Source of the DNA: Yuukianura sp. NJ FZ-2021
Taxonomy: Eukaryota
DNA length: 64,000 nucleotides
NCBI GenBank assembly: GCA_046563655.1
Contig: CM102286.1
Coordinates: forward strand, 12,338,001-12,402,000
Direction of reading: 5' to 3'
Both the position numbers and the translations under genes were made by a program. Below, in pieces: positions 1 to 59,400 of this stretch. The notes below the pieces were generated by a model. The model did not search any database. It was not told where the DNA came from and was given only the letters and a program-made list of their open reading frames with translations. Numbering within the stretch: the stretch's first letter is position 1; each line of letters starts with the position of its first letter.

Positions 1-2748
1 TTTATAGCAAGCAGTAGTTGAGCCAAAGATCGACTTGAAGTGATCAATGTACATACTGCACATCTCACTGGAGTCAAACTCAAACGTTCCCTTCAGACGG
101 TAGTTTCTCTCTTCAAAAAATTTGTAAACTCCATAGAAAATATCCTTGTCGCCAGTGCGCATAGCCGCATCCAAAAACTTCCTTGCTTGAACTGAATCGC
201 TTCTCCCATAACTCTGAACAAACCTAAAATCATGAATAGAGCAATGAAATGTTGTACTACTTCATTAACTTTCCAAATGAAGTACACAACAGAACATTCT
301 TACCTTAAAGCAGCGATAACTTTCTGTTTGTTAAGGAGGACTTCGACAATTAGATCGTTGGCAATCGATAGCCTCTTCAACATGTCAAGAGCCAACTGAA
401 GAGAGGCTGGATAAACTCCTTCAAGAGAAAGTAGCAGACATGCCAGCGGCTTTGAATCCGTTACGACGTGACACATGAGGAACTGGTGCAGTTGATAGAA
501 AGATTTCCTCCGAACCATGGCGTTAATGACAAGTTCATAGATGTAGTGGTTGACCGGGATTTGATATTGTGTAAGAGAACGAATGTACTCCATCATCACG
601 AAGATTACGTACTGGTCCGTCATGTCTTCCGTCTCTGCTTGTTGGAAATTCGAAAAAATGTTTGTATACAAGTCCTGTTGGTCCACCAAGATCATTCCTT
701 TGGGACGTAAAACTTCTACACGTCCGGAACTCGGCAATGCCATCTATAAAGTACACCAAAAAGCATAAGCGATTGATGAATTAATGTACAAGTCACATCA
801 TTCAATTAATTCACCTGTGTTTGTAGTTCAACGTTGAGAAAGCTTCGGTAGTTTTCATTAATGATATCAAATATTTTCGCAACAACTTGATAGTCCGTAA
901 ACCCCGGCTTGAGAATCGACTCTTGCAAAACGCGAAGCAAATGTTTTTTCCCTTGAGTTCTCTGGAGGAAAAATTCTATTACGCGAACTTTGTCTGGAGT
1001 CAAGTGCCGCAACGGATCAAGTGTCAACTCCAAATTCCATACGCAGCCAAGTTTGGCATCGATAATCACATTAGGTTGAAAAACAACCCAGTTAGTCGAG
1101 TCTACAAAAAAAGTTGAAACATTTCGGTGCTATTTGGTCCATAAATTCCAGGAAAGATTTGCTTAAACTTTAACTTACACAATTCACATTCAATGTCAAC
1201 AGCTTCTCGTCCAGGAGGTGAGGGTACAAGCGGCAATTGAAGCCGAAACGGTTTGATCGGCATCGGAACGACGACTTGTTGATGATAAGTCGAACTTCCA
1301 TCTGAGCCACAGCTCAGTCGCACGTCAAAAAGCATTGAAGTCTATTTCGCAAAAAAATGGACATCATGAAACCTTTAACTTTTTTTAGTTGTTGAAAACT
1401 ATCGTTTACCTTTGAAGCCTGGTGATGTACGATTATCAAGTTGTCAATTACATTGATAGCGAAGCGCCCGCTTGTGTCCAATTTTAACACATGTGACTTG
1501 GTCGTGGAGCCTTCTCTGTTGGTACAAATCAAGCATAACATCAATTATTGGATTATAGCATTATTGGAGTCTCTCCTCGAGTGTAATATTTCAATAGATT
1601 GTAGAGTGTATTGTGCTTTACCTGTTCAAAACATAAACGTCGACTTCTGCTCCAGAACCAGTAGACGTTTTAGGTTTATGTCGGAGTATCAGAACTGCAG
1701 TATGATTGTACAGAGTCACTATTGAGACATCGCGTTCGGGAAAGCTCTGTCGTCCCGTACTTTGGTTTTTCGGTGCACTTGCTAAATCAACTATTGGAAA
1801 ACATATTTATACAATTCAGTCAAAGAATAAAGATACTGATTCAGAAAAAGAGATCAGTTCAAACAATACAGAAACAAAATCCCTCCTTACTGTCAAGTTT
1901 AGGATACTTGTAAAGGGTCTCCGGACCATGATGAAAAGGTTGAAGAATTCCAGCAGAAGATACAAGCAGTGTGCTGCTCTCAGGGGAATGTTGAAACCAG
2001 TCAACAACAATGGAAACACTCTTCAAAAACTTCAGCATCCGCTTTTCAGGGAACACCTATGTTAAAACAAAAAATCTTGTACTAATAACATTACACTCAG
2101 TGTTAAAATAAATAAATAACATGTTACCTGAAATAACTCGAGAGCAACGTTTGTTATAAATAGAATTTCGTTTGCAGCAATCCAGATAAAGCCAAGAATG
2201 TTTCCGTTCTTGCTTTTGCATTTTTGACTATATTCTTGCAAACTGTCTGTCCGATTTTGTATAAAGTTGACGAATTCCTAGAACGAAACATCGAGAAAAC
2301 ATGGTTTTCTTCATATGGCCTTTGAGTCACGTCAAATACTATGTTTCGAGTAATTGCTGAGTATCGTTCTTACGACGGAATGGTTAGTACGTTGTACTGC
2401 CAAGATAGTCTGATCAGGGTTGAACTTGATGGACTGCACTGACCCCTTATCTTCCATTCTAAAAGTACTGTTTAAGTGTTCCTTCTGCCCTTTTACGACA
2501 ACTCCAGTGGCTCCACCACTTCGTACCGCAAATACCTAGAATAGAAACATAACGACAAGAAACTACAAGTTACACATTCCAGTTCCTCGAGTACTTCTTT
2601 TCTAGAGAACTACAGTTACAATACAACGTACCTGCTGATTAGCGTCATCATAGAAGACATTTGTAACCTTCGATACTGGCTCAAATCGGATCGGTGAGGA
2701 GCATAGACTCAAGTAAAACCCATCTTCTGCATGGAATCCTTCCTCCAT
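1..2748 (-). CDS. RMC1: Regulator of MON1-CCZ1 complex (Mic1/C18orf8 family), multi-exon, 3' end runs off the left window edge
   Basis: ATG at 2748 gives MEEGFHAEDGFYLSLCSSPIRFEPVSKVTNVFYDDANQQ. Later exons give GRFAINVIDNLIIVHHQ and MEYIRSL...FYQLHQFL...DSKPLACLLLSLE...QLALDMLKRL (Mic1 domain). GT-AG junctions join in frame; the frame is still open at base 1. Confidence 0.9.
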
Positions 2749-3582: not shown

Positions 3583-5363
3583 CTAGACTAATTGTTCGGA
3601 CGCTGACTGAGCAAATTCTAAAAGTTTCCATGCTGCTCTTGGGTTGAGCTCTGTTCTGTCTCGACACAATACCCAAACGTTGTTCACTCGAAGGACTTTC
3701 TCAGGGTCACCTTGCGTCACTTTTCCTGTCTTGTCTTTGACATATTGTACCTATAAATCAAGCAGCGTTAAAAACATTAATACGTTTAACTGAAGACATT
3801 ACTTTAGAATCAAAGCAAAGTTTAAACTCACTTGCTGCGAGGTAAACGTTACAACTAAGACAGGACCCTGCTCCAGCACTCTGCCCATGGCTAAATCTAC
3901 GTGGGAGATGTCCAGTATCCTACTGTGTATCGTCATGCCCAGCTCCTTGGCCTGTTTAATCGGCTGGGCAATTATTGCAAAGGCCTTTTCGTAACACCAG
4001 TCTTCCAGAATCTGCAATCCACGCATAAGTGCTTAAAACTTTCCAAGTTGAATTCCATCCAGTGTTATTTCCGTGTATATTTGAAACTAACCTCAAGATC
4101 TGCTCTGCAACACGCTTCTAGAATATTTGGAATTATATCTTGCTCAACATCTTTCAGAAATTTTTCTTTGTCAAAGCTTGGGTCAAGTTGTATAATTTCC
4201 GTAAGTGCTTCAGATAATTCAGTACGCTGAAAAAGACCACCCATGATATCTGATACCTACAATACACAAATACAAAGGTGTAACATTGAGATTGACCTGA
4301 TGTGCGGATACCCGGGCCAGTTGATTGTTGTGATTCTGATTTACCTTTTCAGTAAGGAGTCTCGATGCTCGAACGACCGGATTCTCGCTCTCATCATATT
4401 TGATCTTCCAATCTAACACTTTGTTGACATAAGGGTTATTATCTTTAAACTTTTCCCAACTTTGGTAAAACCTGAAACCAAGTTAGAAAAAAAAACAATT
4501 CAAGCGAAACTAGAAGACTTTAACAAAACATAGGTCAAGGAAAATCAGTTGCTAACCTTGAATCTTTATGTAGCTCCAATCCACGCGCTTCTTCGTTTGG
4601 TTGAATAACTACTTCAGGTCCAACGACCTCAACACGTTTTCTTAGGGTCACCGGAGGTTTGTATATCCTGCTATCTGAGTTAGCATCTACTATTTCATCT
4701 CGTACAACAGCCGCTGCACCGGAAACAGCACGGAATGGTGTCGTGCTAGCAAGCTTACTACCATGTTCAGCTACTGTGTCAGCAACATTTTGAGCTTGTT
4801 TCCCTAGTTGCTCGCCAACAGCACCTAGGAAGCACAACAATTTTGTAAACTTATTGAATATTTCAGTGGTATTGGAGTAACTGAGAAAGATTGTAACCTA
4901 AAACTGACCTGCCTTCTTAGCAAATTCTGTTTGACTGGCTGTTTCCGCAACTTGTTGTAGTTTCTCCTTCACGGCGTCCATTTGTTCCTTAAATACTTCC
5001 GATCCTTTCGAAGCTTCGGATTCAACAATTTGAAACTTCCGTCGGGCCTGTTTTAAAGCGTCTGATTCTTCTAGTTTCTGTGCCTCCTCTCGAAACTTGG
5101 CAATATTATCTTTCATTTCTTTGTTTTTTGAGAACTCGTTTCGGATGTTGTCAATCAGTTTGGAAACAAATCCTGGCTGCTTTGAATACTGATGTCTAGA
5201 AATGTATTCGCCATGCTAAAAAAATGAATGAAAAGAAAAGTTGCATTGTAATTTTATTAGTAGGGTCACCTACGTTAGGCGGTCTAATGTTTTTTAAGAA
5301 GAAAACGGAAGTATTTACCCTCGCAATATTTAGTTGTATAGCTTTACTGAATAGTCGATGCAT
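3583..5363 (-). CDS. TIMM44: Mitochondrial import inner membrane translocase subunit TIM44, multi-exon
   Basis: MHRLFSKAIQLNIAR presequence-like exon, then KEMKDNIAKFREEAQKLEESDALKQARRKF, LELHKDSR, YDESENPVVRASRLLTEK, ILEDWCYE and GPVLVVTFTSQQ. TAG at 3583-3585. Confidence 0.93.
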
Positions 5364-6282: not shown

Positions 6283-7312
6283 TTATCGTTTCTTTGACTT
6301 TGGTTTTTTGTCGGCTGCTTTGAGTTTTGCAATTTCCCGCTCAACGTTCTTCCACATCTTGGCCTGGAATTCCTTTCGGTAGCCAAATGCAAACATAACT
6401 TCCAACAGAACAAACATCGGAGCCATTCTATTGATTTAAAACCAATAAAAATTAAACAGTATTTGATTCTTAATTACTTCAAAATAATTTTGAACCTACA
6501 AAAACGCTTGTACAAGGTTGTCCAAAAGCGCTGGAGCTCGTCCTTCAAAAACACCATGCCCTATAAACTATTGAAGAAAATCAATCAATCACTGGTTGGT
6601 GTTTAACGTTGAGTTATTCCAGCTTTGACTAACGTACTTGGAAAGCCCATGAAAATACTTGGACAGCAGCAGCAACCTGCCATGCCGGGTAGCCAGTAGA
6701 GGTCAATGAATTCAGAAAGAATTCCCTTCCGGTAAACAGGCAAGCGAAGACCAACAGCGCCGCCAATGATCCAGCGCTAAAAGCAAGCATAGTTTATATT
6801 AATAAATTTAAGTAATATTTATAACATATTATTTAATATTATACTACATATTTATATTTTATACCGTTTATCCATCAGAATGTACGCTACGGCATAGAAG
6901 GTGGCGGCCAAGAAAGACACATTGACAGGATGAAGAGCTGAAACTGGAGCCAGAAATGGAAACGAAAGTTCAAACGGAACGTACTGGGTTAGCACAAAAG
7001 CACTCCATAAAATTGGCCAAACGCAAAATATCTATTTAAAAAACAAAAAAATTAAAAAAAAATTGACAAAAGATAAAATCAGGAGCATTTTTACCCCAAC
7101 TTAAATGCAGCAAATTCTAAGCAATAACTTACGTGAATTAACTTATTGAGCCGGTCATGATGATAGGAAGCGTAGAATGTAAACTGTGAAAAAAATAACG
7201 ATTTTTATTACTTCTTAGTATACATCTCATTACACAAACAAGTTTTCATGTGAAAATTTTTTAAGTTACATGTGAATAAGCTTACTTGTTCGTCCAAATC
7301 TGTAATACCCAT
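6283..7312 (-). CDS. Mpo1/DUF962-family ER membrane protein (2-hydroxy fatty acid dioxygenase-like), 6 coding exons, 198 aa
   Basis: Exons 7312-7286, 7183-7133, 7031-6865, 6776-6638, 6567-6500 and 6427-6283, all GT-AG, total 597 nt. Translation: MGITDLDEQFTFYASYHHDRLNKLIHIFCVWPILWSAF...AYILMDKRAGSLAALLV...[45 protein letters not shown]...KKPKSKKR*. The FYxxYHxxxxNxxIH and [19 protein letters not shown] motifs match the family. Missed by the ORF track because the exons are short. Confidence 0.88.
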
Positions 7313-11644: not shown

Positions 11645-19026
<7,382 letters not shown>

Positions 19027-37307: not shown

Positions 37308-38583
37308 TTTACAAATTAACAATTGCGGTTAACTAATCAATTTAAGTGAACAACCAAAAATCATAGCGAATTTAAAAAAATTAAATGCAGGCTGACTAAA
37401 CCTGAGATATCACCTGATTTCCTAGGGGAAAAATTTTTTGCCGGGTTTCCCGCGCAGATACCAAGGGCTGGGCAGCGTTATTTCACACGCTTTTGCTTAT
37501 TTGCTTCCAGCTTAAGAACTACATTTCTCAGAAATCTTTCACCAGTTAACTAACCGTGACAAGTCTTGCTGTATTTATTTTGTAAATTCCTAATCCCAAT
37601 AAAAATTAACTTGCAAAGTTGATGTGAATTAAATAGTTTTAGGTTAGCTAATTAAAATTTGACACTTCTGCTTAGCTAGCTTTGACTGTGTGAGTGTGTT
37701 TTAGAGCAGTCTGGAAAACAAATTTTCGCGGGGTTTAAATACTCTTCATTCCAAAAATCCAAGAAGCCGGGAATAAATGTTACTTCACTTTTGGAAATGA
37801 ATTAATTCTATTTTGTGGTTAATTAGCGGTTTAGTTACTAAGATTATAGTCAGTTAAAATTAGTGTCAGTTGCAATTGTACACTGCGTGCCATGCCAGAA
37901 TCGATAGGGTTACGAATCCCTCTTAATTTTAGTTAGCATAAGCCATAAAGCAGCTTGTACAAGTGCAAAAATTCCCAAAATATTGGACGCGGTAACATTT
38001 GATTTAAGAAACTCATCGCTAACTCACACCTGTGCATTGCTTGGATCGCCGAGCCAAGCGATCCGAGCCAACAGAAACTGCAGCGATCCACGATCCGATC
38101 CGAGCCAGCAAATTGTTGTCGCGATCCGAACCGAGCCGAGCCAGAAAGTAAAGTCAGCGATCCGCGATCCGATCCGAGCCAGAAAATTTTTGTCGCGATC
38201 CGAACCGAGCCGAGCCAAAGAGGAAAGTCAACGATCCACGATCCGAACCGAGCCAGCAAAAGTTGTTAGCGAGCCGAACCGAGCCGAACCAGCCAAAAAA
38301 CAGCTGCTTGGATCGCTGGCTCGCTAAAATCCGCTGTTGGTTCGGCGATCCAATGGACAAAAAGCATGAGGGGAGACCAATTGCTTTAAAATCAAGTTTA
38401 CAACCAATAAAATAAAACAAAATAACAGAAGTCGTGATTGTATATTAAAATAGGCAATTAATTATATCTAGAAATATTTATTACTAATAATGTAAACTAC
38501 TAATTATAATAAATATACAAAAATTAGGCTAATAGTCCATTGCTTGCATTACACGTATCTAATGTAAACTGGTATACTAATCC

Positions 38584-40200: not shown

Positions 40201-40839
40201 TTGATGCTAAGTAAGGGTAACCTATCTCCCCTCACACTTCTGATTTTCCTGTTGGATCGCTAAAACAGCGATCCAAAATGTGGAAATTGCTGGCTCGGCG
40301 AGCCAGGCGAGCCGATCCAACAAAATTTGTCGCGATCCGCGATCCGATCCGAGCCACAAAATTAAGTAAGCGATCCGAGCCGAGCCGAACCAACAAACTT
40401 TTGGCTCGATCCACGATCCGAACCGAGCCACAAATTTAAGCCCGCGATCCGAGCCGAGCCGAACCAGTCAAACGCAGCGATCCGATCCGAACCTGGCTCG
40501 CTGGCTCGGATCGGTTCGGCTCGGCTCGCTGTAGCGATCCAGCCTGGATCGCTATTTTGGCTCGTGCACAGGTGTGCGCTAACTTTTGTTGTTTTGTTTG
40601 CCTTTGCTTTTGCATCGTGATCGTCTTCGTCCAGCACAGAAATTTATCAATCGATCGACTTGGAACTTTGAGTTCACGTTAGATAGACAGTCTAATTCAA
40701 ACGATTACTTTCAGTGACTGACCGCTGCGAAGTTGAAATTGATGTCAACAAGTTGCGAATCTTTGCTGAGAAACAATAGTGGTTTTTTCGTTCTGTGAAC
40801 TCAACTTTGGTTTCGAAGCGGGTCTCCGCTGATGAAAAC

Positions 40840-47869: not shown

Positions 47870-50399
47870 ACAATGAACTGTAATAGTTTGGCGTCGCGTC
47901 GACAACATCTCCCCTCTTCAACAAAAAGTTTATAGAATCTGTACGCGTGGATGAGGAAGAAGATTTGCACGGCCCAGGACAGGAAGGAAGAAATTGGTAT
48001 TGTAGACAATGTGAAATCCAATTACCGGTAATCCTAAAAACAAATTTAGCATTTATTAAACGTTGATGCCCACGTAGACTATGTTAATTCTTGGATTAGT
48101 CACTTTACCGGAAGAGTGACAGAAACAAAGCATGTTTCCGACATGCTTTGTCCAAATGCAAATTGAATGAGTCAAACAAGGATCCAGTTACACAATACTT
48201 CCGTTGACTTCTTCAAGCAGCCTCTATTTGGTACACACTGAAAGTGAAGAAGCATTTGTTTGTATTAAAAAAAATGATACCATATTAGCAGGGTTGTCAA
48301 AAATATGTGCTAAAAACGACCGAAATATTGACAAGAAATATTTTTTTTAAATCGCCCAAGGTTTTCGTACAATGTGCAAACCTTAAGGCCAAGGGAACCC
48401 TGACCTTTGGATATGCAAAAAGCGTTGCTCCCTTCCTGAAGTCCTGTGCCAAGTACCTTGCCTGCACTCAATGCGCACGTCATTTAAAATTACAAAATGC
48501 AGATTTGACAAGGTACCCTAAGTTACCTAATGCTATTCAACACCCTAACATGTTATTATGTCTTGAAAACGTCTTTTTAAGGTCATCAACTTTTTGCATT
48601 ATTTCGCATTCGCTTGTGCCACAAAAGTTTTTGGCAAAGTCAACAACAAATGGACCAATTTTTGTTTTTGGATCAGGAACCAGGAACCAAAATTCAGTCG
48701 TCCACTTGACTAGTGCTTACGCATGAACTTCTTACGTCGTTGCAATTAAAATGTCCCCAATATTGTACTTCCTGGAAGGGAAATGTCCGACGTAGACGGA
48801 AACAGATTTCCATATACGAAAAACGAATTTGCGTTAAAAAAAAGTGAAAAAAAACAGGACACGATGTGTAACAAGTTTTCCAGCACAAGTTTGTCACATG
48901 CACATCTGATGTGCGTCTACTGTGTTTGTGAATTCGCTGAATTTTGGTTTTGCGATGTGGTATTTCCATTGTCGTCATCACTTCGTAGCTATTTCATTGG
49001 TGATCGGTAAAGGTCAAACAAACTTTCGGTGTCACTGGCTCTTCTTGTGGAATGAATCTGCAACAAAGGAAACCTGTCTAGCATTGGGTATTTTCGAAGA
49101 AACAATTATTTTTAAACTATTTTCCCCATTGAAGGTCACAAAGTTCAGGGCCAGGGTGAAAGTCCAAAATTTTGGTAAGTCCCAGTCACTGTTGTAGCAT
49201 CGTTCAGTAGCATGTATTAGTCGGACCTTTGATCCTAAACATAATAAAACGAGTCAGGTTTGTTATGAATCATAGATTGATTACAAAAAATATAAGTGAC
49301 ACAGTACCTGGACTCAACTGGACATGTTGTTTGGTTGACTCGAATCCAAACTCAATCGGTGGAAGAAGCTGCCTACAACGTTGGTTACCTACAAAAAACT
49401 TCAACCACACACAGACATGCAGACTTGGATGAATGTGGATAAGAAAAACAAAATTGTTAAAATGTCAAAAAAACCTGCAAAACACATATTTTCCATCAAA
49501 ACTTTTAATTCTGGTTATAGACTTATTAGTAAGGCTTACGTGGACAACAAGTTAAAGTCACCGAACAATAAAAAATTAATTAAGGCTAACCGGAGGAACA
49601 AAATAATACACCAACAGGAAGAGAATTAGGCATTAGCGGATCGGTTTTAAAAAAAATTAATAGAAATATACATTTACGACAAAAATTAATTTTGAAGGTC
49701 CTGTGAATAAGAAAAATAATGCATATGAAAGGGCTTACTCACTAACAATATGAATTTCAATTTCAAAAAATCTATACGATAATCCATGACTACACTGTAC
49801 TATAGGCGTAAACTAAACACTTACATAACTTGAACCGCTAAAATACTAATTTCTTAGGCGTTGGATCAGTCTACAGAGAATCACTGCATCTTGCTCTGGC
49901 TGAATTTCTTCGTAACAACTTTAGTACCAAACAGCATCACAGGTATCCCATTTACCTAACGCTCTTGACAGTCCCGCTCGCATTTGCATTCGTGGCTGCA
50001 AGGATTTCCACAGACATGTGAGCATTCCAACACCTTATTACAAATAGCCATACAAGGAGGCGGGAAACGTTCGCCCTTGCAAATTCGGAATTTCTGAAAG
50101 AAAAACCAAATGATACTTTGGAAAAAAAAACGTTTTGAATTTGCCTCCCATGACACACGTAAGCAATAAAATGACGTTTGATCCGCGATTACCTGGTGTC
50201 CACATTTCCTCAAGTCAACCACTAGACGAGTACATACTTTGGGACATTGATGAACTTCATCGATGTGTACTGCAGTGAGGCAACGATGACCACAATCACC
50301 CGGGTATGCTTTCTTGCAAATGTACCAGCACCCATTAGGCTCCGATGCCATTTTGATACGGTCCAAATCCAACTTGCCGCCAATGGACACTTTCAACAT
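47870..50399 (-). pseudogene. NF-X1-type zinc-finger (ZNFX1-like) fragment, probably truncated or decayed
   Basis: The exons at about 50399-50193 and 50095-49961 give PNGCWYICKKAYPGDCGHRCLTAVH...CPKVC...CGHQ|...PPPCMAICNKVLECSHVCGNPCSHECKC (NF-X1-like Cys/His repeats). Further exon-like, GT-AG-bounded segments run down to about 47870, but I could not join them without stops. No helicase domain is seen. Confidence 0.45.
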
Positions 50400-51848
50400 T
50401 CCACTGCTCAGTATTTTAATTTAAGTACGTTCCACTTATTGATTGTCCTGTAAAACAGAGAGGCGAAGAAATCAGAAATTCGTTCAAAGTTATAACCAAA
50501 CTATCAGTTCAATTAACAACATTCTTAGAAAATCAATTAGCTGCCTTACTTGTGTTTGTCTTCTAGTAGGCAGTATCCGCAAGGGCACGTGATGTTGATA
50601 GGTATCTTTCTCCACTGAAAAAGCTGTACGTGCGGTTCAACAATTGTATCATCACTCCAGTCCACTCGATCCAGTATTAAAAAACGTTGTGGTAACGGAG
50701 AATGATAAAACCGAATCTCAGAATCCTCTCCAATAAACCGTCGTCAGTTATAAACTTTATAAAGTGAGAATAGAATGAATGTGAATGAATAGAAATTCCG
50801 CAAAAGGCGTCTGCGCTTCTCGTCGTAGTAAGTAAAATGATGCTCCATTCATCATCGTATTACATAAGAAGCCATCGTGTAAGTGTAAAAGTGTACCGTG
50901 ATATGGACTAACTATTCCTCCGATTAATCGGATGCGCGGCAATATGGAGGCGAATATTGTTGAAAAATCCCAATCCTTTTATATTTATTTGATAGAAAGT
51001 AATATTAGTAATTCAAATTATTCAAAATATACTACACATTCTGCAAATACCATACACGGTTTCCTGTCTTATTTTGTTCTAAAAACATTTCCAGTTCTTC
51101 CAAACTCTAATGTAGCGTAGCACATTTAAACCAGTTAGGTTAGGGTAGTTTATAATTAGTCAGGATTCCAAATGCTAACTATATAGTAATAAATAACCTA
51201 CCTTACTGATTACTCCTTAGTCCTTCCTTAGCATTGAAGATGAATAGTAGGAAGAACATTACAGCCGGATTTAAGTTTGACAAGGCAAAAGTTAGCGATG
51301 CCGTTAGACGTCACAAGGATAGACTAGTACTTTATTATTTTTTTTATTACGCGCGAAAATCATAAACACGCGGAAGTCCACTTGAATTTGAATTGAATGA
51401 AACCGAAACGTCAAAATCAAAACACAGACAACAGACAGAAATGTGAATTTGAAATTAATTTAGCAAACTTGTTCGTATTAAAGCAAAAGTAATTAACGTC
51501 GAGTAATTAATTGAAAAAAAAAACACCGAGTTAGGTACTAAGTCAATTAGTGTGTTGATAAGTTACAAGTGACATCAAGTTAGTCAAGTAGTGACGACTT
51601 CACAGTTCACACTATTAGCTAAACTTGACTGAAGTTGAAGAAAGTCTGATTATTAGTACATACCGTACCGTATCGTAATCCTAAATCTAAATGCTAATGT
51701 AAACAAACCGCTGTTCTTAACTGCACTTTAGGTTTATAGGACGAACTGACTTTCCGCACGTCAAGAAAGTAAAATCAAGAAAACTCCAATTACGCTCCGG
51801 TTAGACTTGCAGTTGCAAGTTGCAACCAATTACTGGCAAGTGGCAACC

Positions 51849-56441: not shown

Positions 56442-59400
56442 ATGTCTTTCTCATGTTCAACCAGGCTGTTGAATTGTAAACACTTCTTCGATCAAGGCAG
56501 ATGGAGAGCATTATCGACCTACAGGACTTTCCTCTCTTCACGGTCAACGACAAATAACCCAGTATTCAAGGCTGCAGATCTAAAGATTAAGAATGGGCAG
56601 GTACGTTGTTCAACCATTTTGCCGTACAGTTTTTTTTTAAATATTGAATACTTAAGAGTGTATATGACCAATTTGAGCCAAGTGACCAGTTTATCACTAT
56701 TTAACCTTACCCCGCCGGACTAATTAGTAAAATCATAGCTTAGTGTGTCAATTTTATCAAACAGAAGCAGCGAACGGGCAGTTTAGAAACGGATCGGGAT
56801 CGTACCATTCCGAATCACAAATCGTTATCGTCTCGATAATCCTTGTCAATCGCCAGCTTATAGTAACGCCTACACAATTCATTGCTCAAGTTTATCAGCC
56901 AACGTAATTCATTCAGTACTGGTAAATTCGTAGAAAATGAAACGCAAGGGAAGGACACACAGGCGTAGGTCAAGTAAAGTCAAAGTCACAGAACTCTCTC
57001 AGTCTCGTCATCCAATACCGCTCCATTCAACATCGCCAATAATTCGTATTCTTCAGTACTTGCACAGTCAATCCAGCTACTTCAAAACCGTTAACGTGCA
57101 ACCTGCTTTATTCCATGTACAAGACTCAAAAAATTCAGAGGATGTAGTCTATCGGGGAATTTCCGCAATGAAGAGGATTGGATCTGGCACGGTTCTCTTA
57201 ACCCTCCCGGAGTCACTACTTATTAAACCAGTTGACGTACTGCGACATCTCAAACAGAGTTCATTTGCGTCATCAGATGTTTTGGCCACCTTGCCAATTG
57301 CGTCGTTACTCGCCTTATTCCTGCTCCGTGAAATCAAATTGGGGAAGGAGTCGGAATTTCAACACTACATGGATACGCTCCCGGACAGTTTCTTGGAAAA
57401 CCCAATTTATTTGCCAGAAGAGGAGAAGAATATTCTTCCCGCAGCCTTACAAAAGTATCTCAGTGATCACTTTCAGGATATTCAGAAGCAATTTCAAAAC
57501 CTACGGACGAATTTTGATTGGTTTGACTTCGAAGAGTTCCAGTTTGCCTTCCTAGCTGTGAGTACTCGAACAGTCTTTTACGAACCAGAAGGAGGCCAGC
57601 GACAAATGGCACTAGCTCCATTCCTTGACCTCTTCAATCATTCTCCCATACCTAACAGTGAAACGTCATTTGACAAAGTGACTCGGAGTTACGTCATCAA
57701 GTCGTCTAACCGTATCAATCGCTGGGAGCAAGTTTTTGTCAGCTACGGTCCTCACTCTAATCATGCTTTGTGGCTCGACTATGGTTTTATTCCCACAGAA
57801 CTCAACCCATTCAATATCATTCCGCTGGAATTCAATGCCTTAGTTCAACAGAATAAGTGGCTGGACCAGGTCATGAACGACAAGCGAAAAATGAATGTCG
57901 TCAAACAGTACTCGTTGACTGAGAATTTAGCTCTGCATCAGCACGAACTTTCTTACAACTTATGCTTGCTCATTCACATTGCCCTCTGGAATCCAGCGCA
58001 GACGACTACTTTTGATTTCGAGATTGACTGTGCCAGTGCTCAGTTTAAGGAAATGGCTTTAACCCTCACCGAAAACGAACTTTCTAGTTACAAACAGTCC
58101 TTGGAGAAGCTGAAAGCGTCGCCCGCTACCCCCTCAGTCTCTACCACTACTGATCTTCTGAATAGTTCAATTATTTTTATGCAATCCCTGATCGAATGCT
58201 TAAAGTGAGCAGTGAGTGTTTGAAGCAAGTATTTTGGGGAGCTGAAGTTTAACCGCTTGTTATTTTATTGTTTTATGACGCAGTCCGGATTTTTTTTTAC
58301 TAGTGTTTACTGTTCATGTGTTCCTTTTAGAGTAATCTGTTTCACCCCCAGAGATCCTGTTTTCACCCGGGAGTCAGCAGTCTCGCTCGAGAGGGAATCA
58401 AACTTCCAAGTTCCGCTCAAGAAGTTTCTTCTAGTCACATGCTGAAAGTAATGTTGACCTACATTTGGCCTAAAGTAAGTCCATTTTGTAAAACTATGAC
58501 CATACCGCGTTGATTGGCTAACGTTAAAATGTTCTTTGATTCCTTTCTATTTTTGCTTTTAAGGACAACTTAGAGATTCGTCAACGTGTAATGGTGGCCT
58601 TAGGACTACTCGTTTCGGCCAAGGTTTTAAACGTCTGCGTTCCTGTGATGTTCAAGCTTGCGGTTGATAATTTAGCGCCTACGGCTGCTGCCGGATTAAC
58701 TGACACCGTCTCAACGGTAACCACGTTTTCGCTGGCTATTCTCGTTGGTTGTAAGTACTAATCAGTCATCATTTAGGTTATATCACAGTAAAAATCAAAT
58801 TGACATTCTATCATGTTCTTTCTTTAGATGGATTGGCACGCCTGGGATCATCTGGATTCAACGAGCTAAGAAACGCTGTTTTTGCCAAAGTTGCTCAGAG
58901 AAGTATCCGGAAAATTTCTCGGAACGTGTTTCTACATCTCCACAATTTAGATTTATCATTTCACCTGAGCCGTCAAACTGGAGCATTGTCTAAGGTTAAA
59001 CCTCATTTGTTTATACTTTGAATATCTTTGAAGATATAACTGAAGAGAAAACATGATCAATTATCTTTTGAGCAGACAATCGATCGTGGGTCTCGCGGAA
59101 TTAATTTTGTGCTTACAGCGATGGTGTTCAATATCGTACCAACATTATTTGAATTGGGTCTTGTCTCTGCAGTTTTGGTAAGATAAATCAAGCAATGTTA
59201 AACATGGGTTGCCCATTCTCAAGCGTAATGCATGACTATAAAATTTGTTTGTTTAGGGATATTCTTTTGGTGCAAACTTCGCCCTGGTTGCTGTCGGTTG
59301 CGTTTCAACGTATGCTGCTTATACGCTTACTATGACTCAGTGGAGAACGAAGTTCAGGGTGGCGATGAATAAGGCGGATAATGAATCCGGGAATCGTGCC

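Follow-up and report, generated by a model that had tools for sequence, protein, structure and literature searches.

The window, by which we mean the whole 64-kb stretch of DNA that was analysed, contains no N and carries on its minus strand a gene of six GT-AG exons lying at 6283-7312 (Table 1). Splicing of these exons joins 597 nt of coding sequence that remains in frame to a TAA stop and encodes 198 amino acids. The preliminary description of this DNA had called an intact, intron-bearing Mpo1/DUF962 gene here, and the same model was obtained when the gene was rebuilt from the window by coordinates. Introns 1 to 5 are 102, 101, 88, 70 and 72 nt long, all run from GT to AG, and have GC contents of 12-36% each (22.9% overall). 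The residues encoded by exon 1 pair in the alignment with MGITDLEEQ, the start of the orthologous protein of the springtail Folsomia candida, and the window exons align cleanly both to that protein and to protein P0004.

Read-through ORFs from other organisms end at the exon boundaries of the window gene, as judged from their protein sequences: P0005 reads through intron 1, has no intron 2 and ends at the intron 3 site, and P0001 (by the same kind of protein-sequence comparison) starts at the intron 2 site and runs into intron 3 in the same phase. Because these ORF breaks coincide with window exon ends, the gene, along with some or all of its introns, appears to be old within the springtail-type clade defined below.

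Table 1. Coordinates of the Mpo1-like gene, its neighbours and other features in the 64-kb window
Feature	Position	Strand	Remarks
RMC1 gene	300-2535	-	downstream of the Mpo1-like gene
Tim44-domain gene exons	3586-4256 and beyond	-	downstream neighbour; PF04280 38.6, 47.7 and 32.0 bits on three ORFs
Candidate polyadenylation signal AATAAA	6198-6203	-	motif match only; 79 nt past the stop
Candidate polyadenylation signal ATTAAA	6224-6229	-	motif match only; 53 nt past the stop
Mpo1-like gene, exon 6	6283..6427	-	E160, last hydrophobic segment, Lys-rich tail ...KSKKR, TAA stop
Mpo1-like gene, exon 5	6500..6567	-	carries invariant H132, E136, R138, P140, D144; Pfam PF06127 23.6 bits, profile positions 59-81
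Mpo1-like gene, exon 4	6638..6776	-	hydrophobic segment ~residues 83-106; last residues ...SWAFQ
Mpo1-like gene, exon 3	6865..7031	-	hydrophobic segments ~residues 27-45 and 61-80; split codon at end (phase 2)
Mpo1-like gene, exon 2	7133..7183	-	FTFYASYHHDRLNKLIH; carries the YHxxxxNxxIH motif; Pfam PF06127 16.5 bits, profile positions 5-25
Mpo1-like gene, exon 1	7286..7312	-	ATG, encodes MGITDLDEQ; donor GTAAGC, phase 0
Protein kinase with SIK-type UBA domain	12221-17272	+	upstream neighbour; PF00069 on four ORFs, PF23312 UBA_SIK3 32.1 bits
74-bp tandem repeat, array 1	38059-38293		3.2 copies
74-bp tandem repeat, array 2	40308-40493		2.2-2.6 copies; related to array 1, ~2 kb apart
Cys/His-rich ORF	49956-50420	-	154 aa, repeated C-x-H-x-C spacing; no Pfam match at E<=0.001
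Single open frame with SET domain	56934-58208	+	424 aa; SET domain 30.4 bits

The encoded protein and its genomic setting

Exons 2 and 5, when scored singly, each match the Pfam family PF06127 (Mpo1-like, DUF962) just under its 24-bit cut-off (Table 1). The whole spliced protein reaches 279 bits (E 1e-87), far above chance expectation, with a profile of the family made from 145 rows that do not include the window, and the family assignment of the preliminary description is right. The alignment to this profile crosses all five exon junctions with no gap at any of them. For comparison, PF06127 gives 76-85 bits, against the same cut-off of 24, on seven full-length relatives, five of which are from arthropods. 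In a 146-row alignment of eukaryotic Mpo1-like proteins, 34 columns show at least 90% conservation, and the window protein agrees with the consensus in every one of the 34, among them Y13, Y16, H17, N22, H26, W125, H132, E136, R138, P140, D144 and E160. The N-terminal motif Y-H-x4-N-x3-H is present as YHHDRLNKLIH (residues 16-26; Y16, H17, N22 and H26 are each conserved in at least 142 of the 146 rows), as are the central blocks W-x2-QF-x-GH-x3-E-x-R-x-P-x-L-x-D and A-P-x-F-V-x2-E, within which W125, Q128, H132, E136, R138, P140, D144, P154 and E160 are each conserved in 144-146 of the 146 rows. The first motif, a second one at residues 128-154 and the Lys-rich tail had all been claimed beforehand and were found as claimed. 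A pseudogene reading was considered and, like contamination (below), rejected on the full conservation of the strongly conserved columns, on composition, on the introns and on genomic linkage.

The length of 198 residues fits a small multi-pass membrane protein (~170-210 residues) as judged by hydropathy, with Kyte-Doolittle hydrophobic segments at about residues 27-45, 61-80, 83-106 and 140-168 (these are hydropathy segments and not the output of a topology predictor). A single-domain architecture of about 200 residues is common to the window protein and to fungal and plant members. For the Folsomia orthologue there is an Atlas structure model (pTM 0.82), and its superposition with a fungal Mpo1-like cluster gives a TM of 0.92; a search of the PDB found no sequence relative (best E-value 0.21). 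We conclude on the strength of the sequence that the gene is an intact member of the Mpo1-like family PF06127 and that its predicted product is a 198-residue multi-pass membrane protein.

The preliminary description had placed the Mpo1-like gene between TIMM44 and SIK2; it lies between a Tim44-domain gene on one side and a kinase with a SIK-type UBA domain on the other, and PAX, G-beta, ABC1-kinase, XPD, SET and ABC-transporter genes are found further along the window; the gene is physically linked to native host genes. The GC content of its coding sequence is 44.6% (44.2% at third codon positions, GC3), and the corresponding values for 18 pooled neighbour exon ORFs are 44.0% and 42.2%. Several other features of the window were observed. 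The two 74-bp tandem-repeat arrays are related to each other and could mark the two ends of a mobile element, a Cys/His-rich ORF resembles an NFX1-type zinc-finger exon, and the frame that encodes a SET domain is of unusual length beside the mostly short exons of the window (Table 1). Rfam gave 0 matches across the window.

Could the gene nevertheless be a plant, fungal or protist fragment that has been misassembled into, or has contaminated, an animal assembly? Apart from the family's non-animal reputation nothing speaks in favour of this. The sequence is gap-free, host genes flank the gene on both sides (RMC1, Tim44, the SIK-type kinase, PAX, G-beta, XPD and ABC genes), its short AT-rich GT-AG introns and its GC3 resemble those of its neighbours, and its nearest relatives are arthropod genes on megabase-scale scaffolds (below). 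The preliminary description, which had used the same kind of evidence, was right to call contamination unlikely, and we consider it extremely improbable. The best overall explanation, to which we give a probability of roughly 85%, is that the locus is a genuine, intact nuclear gene resident in an arthropod genome and that it encodes an Mpo1-like enzyme.

Relatives in arthropods and other organisms

The preliminary description had held that animals lack the Mpo1 family, but is this so? An HMM made by stacking exons 3, 2 and 5, whose rows are non-homologous and which served as a retrieval device only, returned 41 proteins; 39 of these are family members by phmmer comparison with the spliced protein, and the other two (P0002 and P0011) are spurious repeat proteins. 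A word-index search with exon 3 alone gave one match among 15 candidates, the 109-residue read-through ORF P0001 (60% identity), and one with exon 6 alone gave no match among 6 candidates. Cluster look-up of the top matches led to Folsomia candida (including XP_021960422.1), Creolimax, Closterium, Phaseolus, Vitis and an MMETSP protist. A profile search with an alignment of the window, Folsomia and P0004 proteins scored 8000 candidates, of which 2595 reached E<=1e-5, and the best 120 of the 2595 were examined. At least ten of these best 120 are arthropod proteins, as follows: Folsomia candida (2), Orchesella dallaii, O. cincta, Allacma fusca, Bradysia odoriphaga, Pseudolycoriella hygida, Tigriopus californicus (2) and Eurytemora carolleeae. 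Several of them are already annotated as "2-hydroxy-palmitic acid dioxygenase mpo1".

The family is therefore present in animals, contrary to the earlier claim, and a tree published in 2016 (below) adds sea lice and Oikopleura dioica. In the databases searched, at least eight arthropod species already have this gene annotated, so the window gene is one more orthologue and not a new kind of gene. The preliminary description had held that broad, vertically inherited orthologues across Metazoa would remove its novelty; several orthologues do exist, but their distribution is patchy. What we have is a little-studied, patchily distributed animal gene family, and a literature search of titles and abstract openings found no animal study of Mpo1-like proteins.

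Among the matches listed, 24 proteins have 55.1-68.2% identity to the window protein, and the next best has at most 49.5%. The named members of this close group (55-68% identity) are the springtails Folsomia candida, Orchesella cincta, O. dallaii and Allacma fusca and the sciarid flies Bradysia odoriphaga and Pseudolycoriella hygida; its full-length orthologues align with the window protein from residue 1 to 197 or 198. The remaining relatives in the close group come from JGI and Logan and are full-length ORFs without interruption, on contigs whose size (~0.9-1.3 kb) is compatible with their being spliced mRNAs. The two genes of T. californicus and that of E. carolleeae encode proteins with 43-48% identity and are no closer than those of plants or fungi.

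The Folsomia candida protein XP_021960422.1 (P0042) is 64.6% identical over all 198 window residues and resembles the window protein in its start (MGITDL.EQ), its motifs, its length of 195 residues and its PF06127 match (76.5 bits); it differs in its C-terminal tail, and its name, "2-hydroxy-palmitic acid dioxygenase mpo1", comes from automatic annotation. Literature searches found no experiment on it, and the three supplementary files of the Folsomia genome paper contain 0 occurrences of the gene's tags or names. The proteins of O. cincta (Ocin01_11427, P0073) and O. dallaii (P0069) are 62-63% identical to the window protein, and those of the sciarids B. odoriphaga (P0072) and P. hygida (P0075) are 60-64% identical.

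Three side observations concern individual relatives. The two sciarid genes sit on scaffolds of 3 Mb (Bradysia) and 64 Mb (Pseudolycoriella). P0082 from F. candida, a 177-residue GenBank model named "putative ferric transport system permease protein FbpB 1", carries PF06127 and is 100% identical to the Folsomia Mpo1 over 59% of the latter's length, so that its name looks like a mis-annotation. P0013 has 501 residues and two tandem Mpo1-like domains, each half being 37-38% identical to the window protein.

The O. cincta orthologue has a history of its own. Page 105 of File S1 of the O. cincta genome paper gives a tree that contains Ocin01_11427-PA (our P0073) together with two proteins of Lepeophtheirus salmonis, one of Caligus clemensi and one of Oikopleura dioica, the other rows being from Leptospira, conifers, oomycetes, Ectocarpus and fungi (PMC4987106). 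Inclusion among these trees means, in the portion of the paper that describes them, that a gene had reached h>=30, showed linkage to native genes and entered the phylogenetic test (PMC4987106). Through this orthologue the gene was flagged as possibly foreign in 2016; on that page it is treated as a horizontal-transfer candidate and, unlike here, is not called Mpo1 (PMC4987106).

Phylogenetic placement and origin

Trees were inferred with FastTree on 146 rows and then with IQ-TREE (LG+C20+F+G4, PMSF) on 86 rows and 204 columns, the smaller set having been made by removing 18 rows with long branches and by thinning out plants and copepod-type sequences. Both trees contain a springtail-type clade of 24 rows, which includes the window protein, springtails and sciarids and has support of 100/99 in the IQ-TREE analysis. 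Within it the Orchesella group is sister to the window protein (91/82), whose terminal branch is long (0.34), and is its nearest named group; the Allacma group and P0004/P0061 branch earlier; and the sciarids form a group with P0070 and P0071 (100/98) that is nested within springtail diversity (98/90). The springtail-type gene was present before the sampled springtail lineages diverged. Judged by this single gene tree, the arthropod host is most probably a springtail of the Orchesella or Folsomia type. Plants plus charophytes (100/95) and fungi (100/95) are separate clades and the springtail-type clade lies outside both. Its sister, with weak support (79/66), is a mixed assemblage in which Creolimax, protists, stramenopiles and copepods occur together. 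A copepod-containing clade (92/88) joins the oomycete Aphanomyces (98/90); the genus Aphanomyces includes parasites of crustaceans and fish. This clade was seen to consist of P0097, P0136, P0137 and 25 other rows, mostly marine or JGI sequences.

Three constrained topologies were compared with the best tree by AU tests, for which the groups were defined after the first tree had been seen. Forcing the springtail-type and copepod-type sequences into one clade costs 18.5 lnL (p-AU 0.071), placing the named springtails together without the sciarids costs 6.1 (p-AU 0.111), and joining the springtail-type clade to streptophytes costs 2.8 (p-AU 0.217), so none of the three constraints is rejected at 0.05.

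These results bear in different ways on the earlier proposal that the gene was either an old horizontal acquisition that later gained introns or a cryptic retention. The maximum-likelihood tree does deliver a well-supported clade of springtails and sciarids, but it does not separate transfer from retention, neither being rejected by the AU tests. The plant- or protist-like look that the preliminary description saw in parts of the protein does not point to a donor, as the springtail-type clade is separate from those of plants and fungi and from stramenopiles and Creolimax, and is not nested within any donor clade that lacks animals. Nor does an alien-index type of comparison favour a foreign source: among the named rows listed, the best non-animal match (the fungus Viridothelium, 166 bits) is no better than the best copepod match (Tigriopus, 167 bits), which gives an h of about -1 and not one of 30 or more. 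A plant donor was also considered, and the springtail-type clade is not nested in plants.

Where, then, did the arthropod genes come from? We hold horizontal capture and patchy vertical retention nearly even. Capture, for which we would allow close to an even chance, would mean that the gene passed from a microbial eukaryote to an ancestor of springtails and that host introns were added later, that copepods acquired theirs separately, and that sciarids obtained theirs from a springtail-like source. The patchy distribution among animals argues for it, as do the separation of the springtail-type from the copepod-containing clade in the maximum-likelihood tree, the position of the latter with Aphanomyces, the likelihood cost of forcing a single arthropod clade, and the nesting of the sciarids with P0070/P0071 among springtails. 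The O. cincta orthologue, moreover, passed both the h>=30 screen and the genome-linkage test in the account given in 2016 (PMC4987106). Against these points, no donor was found, the clade being nested in no plant, fungal or sampled protist group; the present h value is about -1 among the named rows; the AU tests, with groups named after the first tree, reject nothing at 0.05; and the relatives examined are the best 120 of 2595.

Retention, a tentative reading to which we would give somewhat less than even odds, holds that an ancestral opisthokont or holozoan gene was kept in copepods, springtails and Oikopleura and was lost many times elsewhere. It is favoured by the occurrence of the family in fungi and in the holozoan Creolimax, by intron positions common to members of the springtail-type clade, by the host-like composition of the gene, by the fact that arthropod monophyly is not rejected (the same p-AU of 0.071 whose likelihood cost was counted above for transfer), and by the relationship of the hosts, copepods and springtails both being pancrustaceans. 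What stands against it is that the two arthropod clades are separate in the maximum-likelihood topology and that the sciarid copies would require very many independent losses across insects. In addition, the UniProt BLAST matches from animals that the O. cincta supplement shows for 2016 are only three sea-louse proteins and one from Oikopleura (PMC4987106).

The sciarid genes are a special case. Their hosts are Diptera, so a place among springtails is unexpected under vertical descent, and it hints at arthropod-to-arthropod transfer; the constraint that keeps the named springtails together is, however, not rejected (p 0.11), and the placement is not significant. Taken to its full extent, the transfer account would have animal Mpo1 captured at least twice from microbial eukaryotes, in an ancestor of springtails and separately in copepods, and then passed from a springtail-like source to sciarid fungus gnats, giving its bearers a one-step route for dietary 2-hydroxy fatty acids. 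We regard this complete scenario as rather unlikely.

Probable function and what the gene may mean for arthropods

The founding member of PF06127 is yeast Mpo1 (YGL010w), with which the window protein shares this Pfam family. Yeast Mpo1 is an Fe2+-dependent enzyme located in the ER. By homology to it, the window protein probably carries out a one-step, Fe2+-dependent alpha-oxidation of 2-hydroxy fatty acids. Yeast Mpo1 is the only family member with a demonstrated activity, alpha-oxidation, which the relevant text of PMC10398889 describes as a single dioxygenase step that shortens a 2-hydroxy fatty acid by one carbon. The route that this text describes for the same substrates in mammals runs through an acyl-CoA synthetase, HACL1/2 and an aldehyde dehydrogenase (PMC10398889). 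The net conversion, from a 2-hydroxy fatty acid to an odd-chain acid one carbon shorter, is the same in the two cases, but the animal HACL1/HACL2 route takes three steps by way of acyl-CoA and aldehyde and uses unrelated, thiamine-dependent lyases.

From the homology to yeast Mpo1 we infer the following mechanism. The protein would reside in the ER membrane, a placement that its C-terminal K-x-K-x-x tail supports; the tail of the Folsomia protein does not match K-x-K-x-x, so the ER-retrieval reading of this tail is weak. The invariant residues H17, H26, H132, E136, D144 and E160 would bind Fe2+, and with O2 the enzyme would remove one carbon from 2-hydroxy fatty acids, for example converting 2-OH C16:0 to C15:0 plus CO2. 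Its substrates would come from the breakdown of phytosphingosine and of 2-hydroxylated sphingolipids.

Might it instead be a family member with a different substrate or role, such as another lipid oxygenase or a non-catalytic membrane protein? That yeast Mpo1 is the only characterised member, and that identity to the fungal rows is only about 41-50%, leave room for this. Since all of the strongly conserved columns are kept, every invariant His, Glu, Arg and Asp among them, and the single-domain architecture is identical to that of fungal and plant members, we think a different role doubtful and alpha-oxidation of 2-hydroxy fatty acids the probable function.

Several arthropod lineages carry a conserved and, as far as its sequence can tell, apparently functional Mpo1-type gene, and the window confirms that an arthropod gene of this type is intron-bearing and embedded among host genes. 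As far as is known, these lineages all have fungal or algal diets. Textbook accounts, as they are presented in the relevant part of PMC10398889, credit animals with a single way of handling 2-hydroxy fatty acids, the three-step HACL pathway. If the proposed function and origin are correct, fungus- and alga-feeding animals would burn, in a single step, the 2-hydroxy fatty acids that come from fungal and plant sphingolipids in their food, either alongside the HACL pathway or in place of it.
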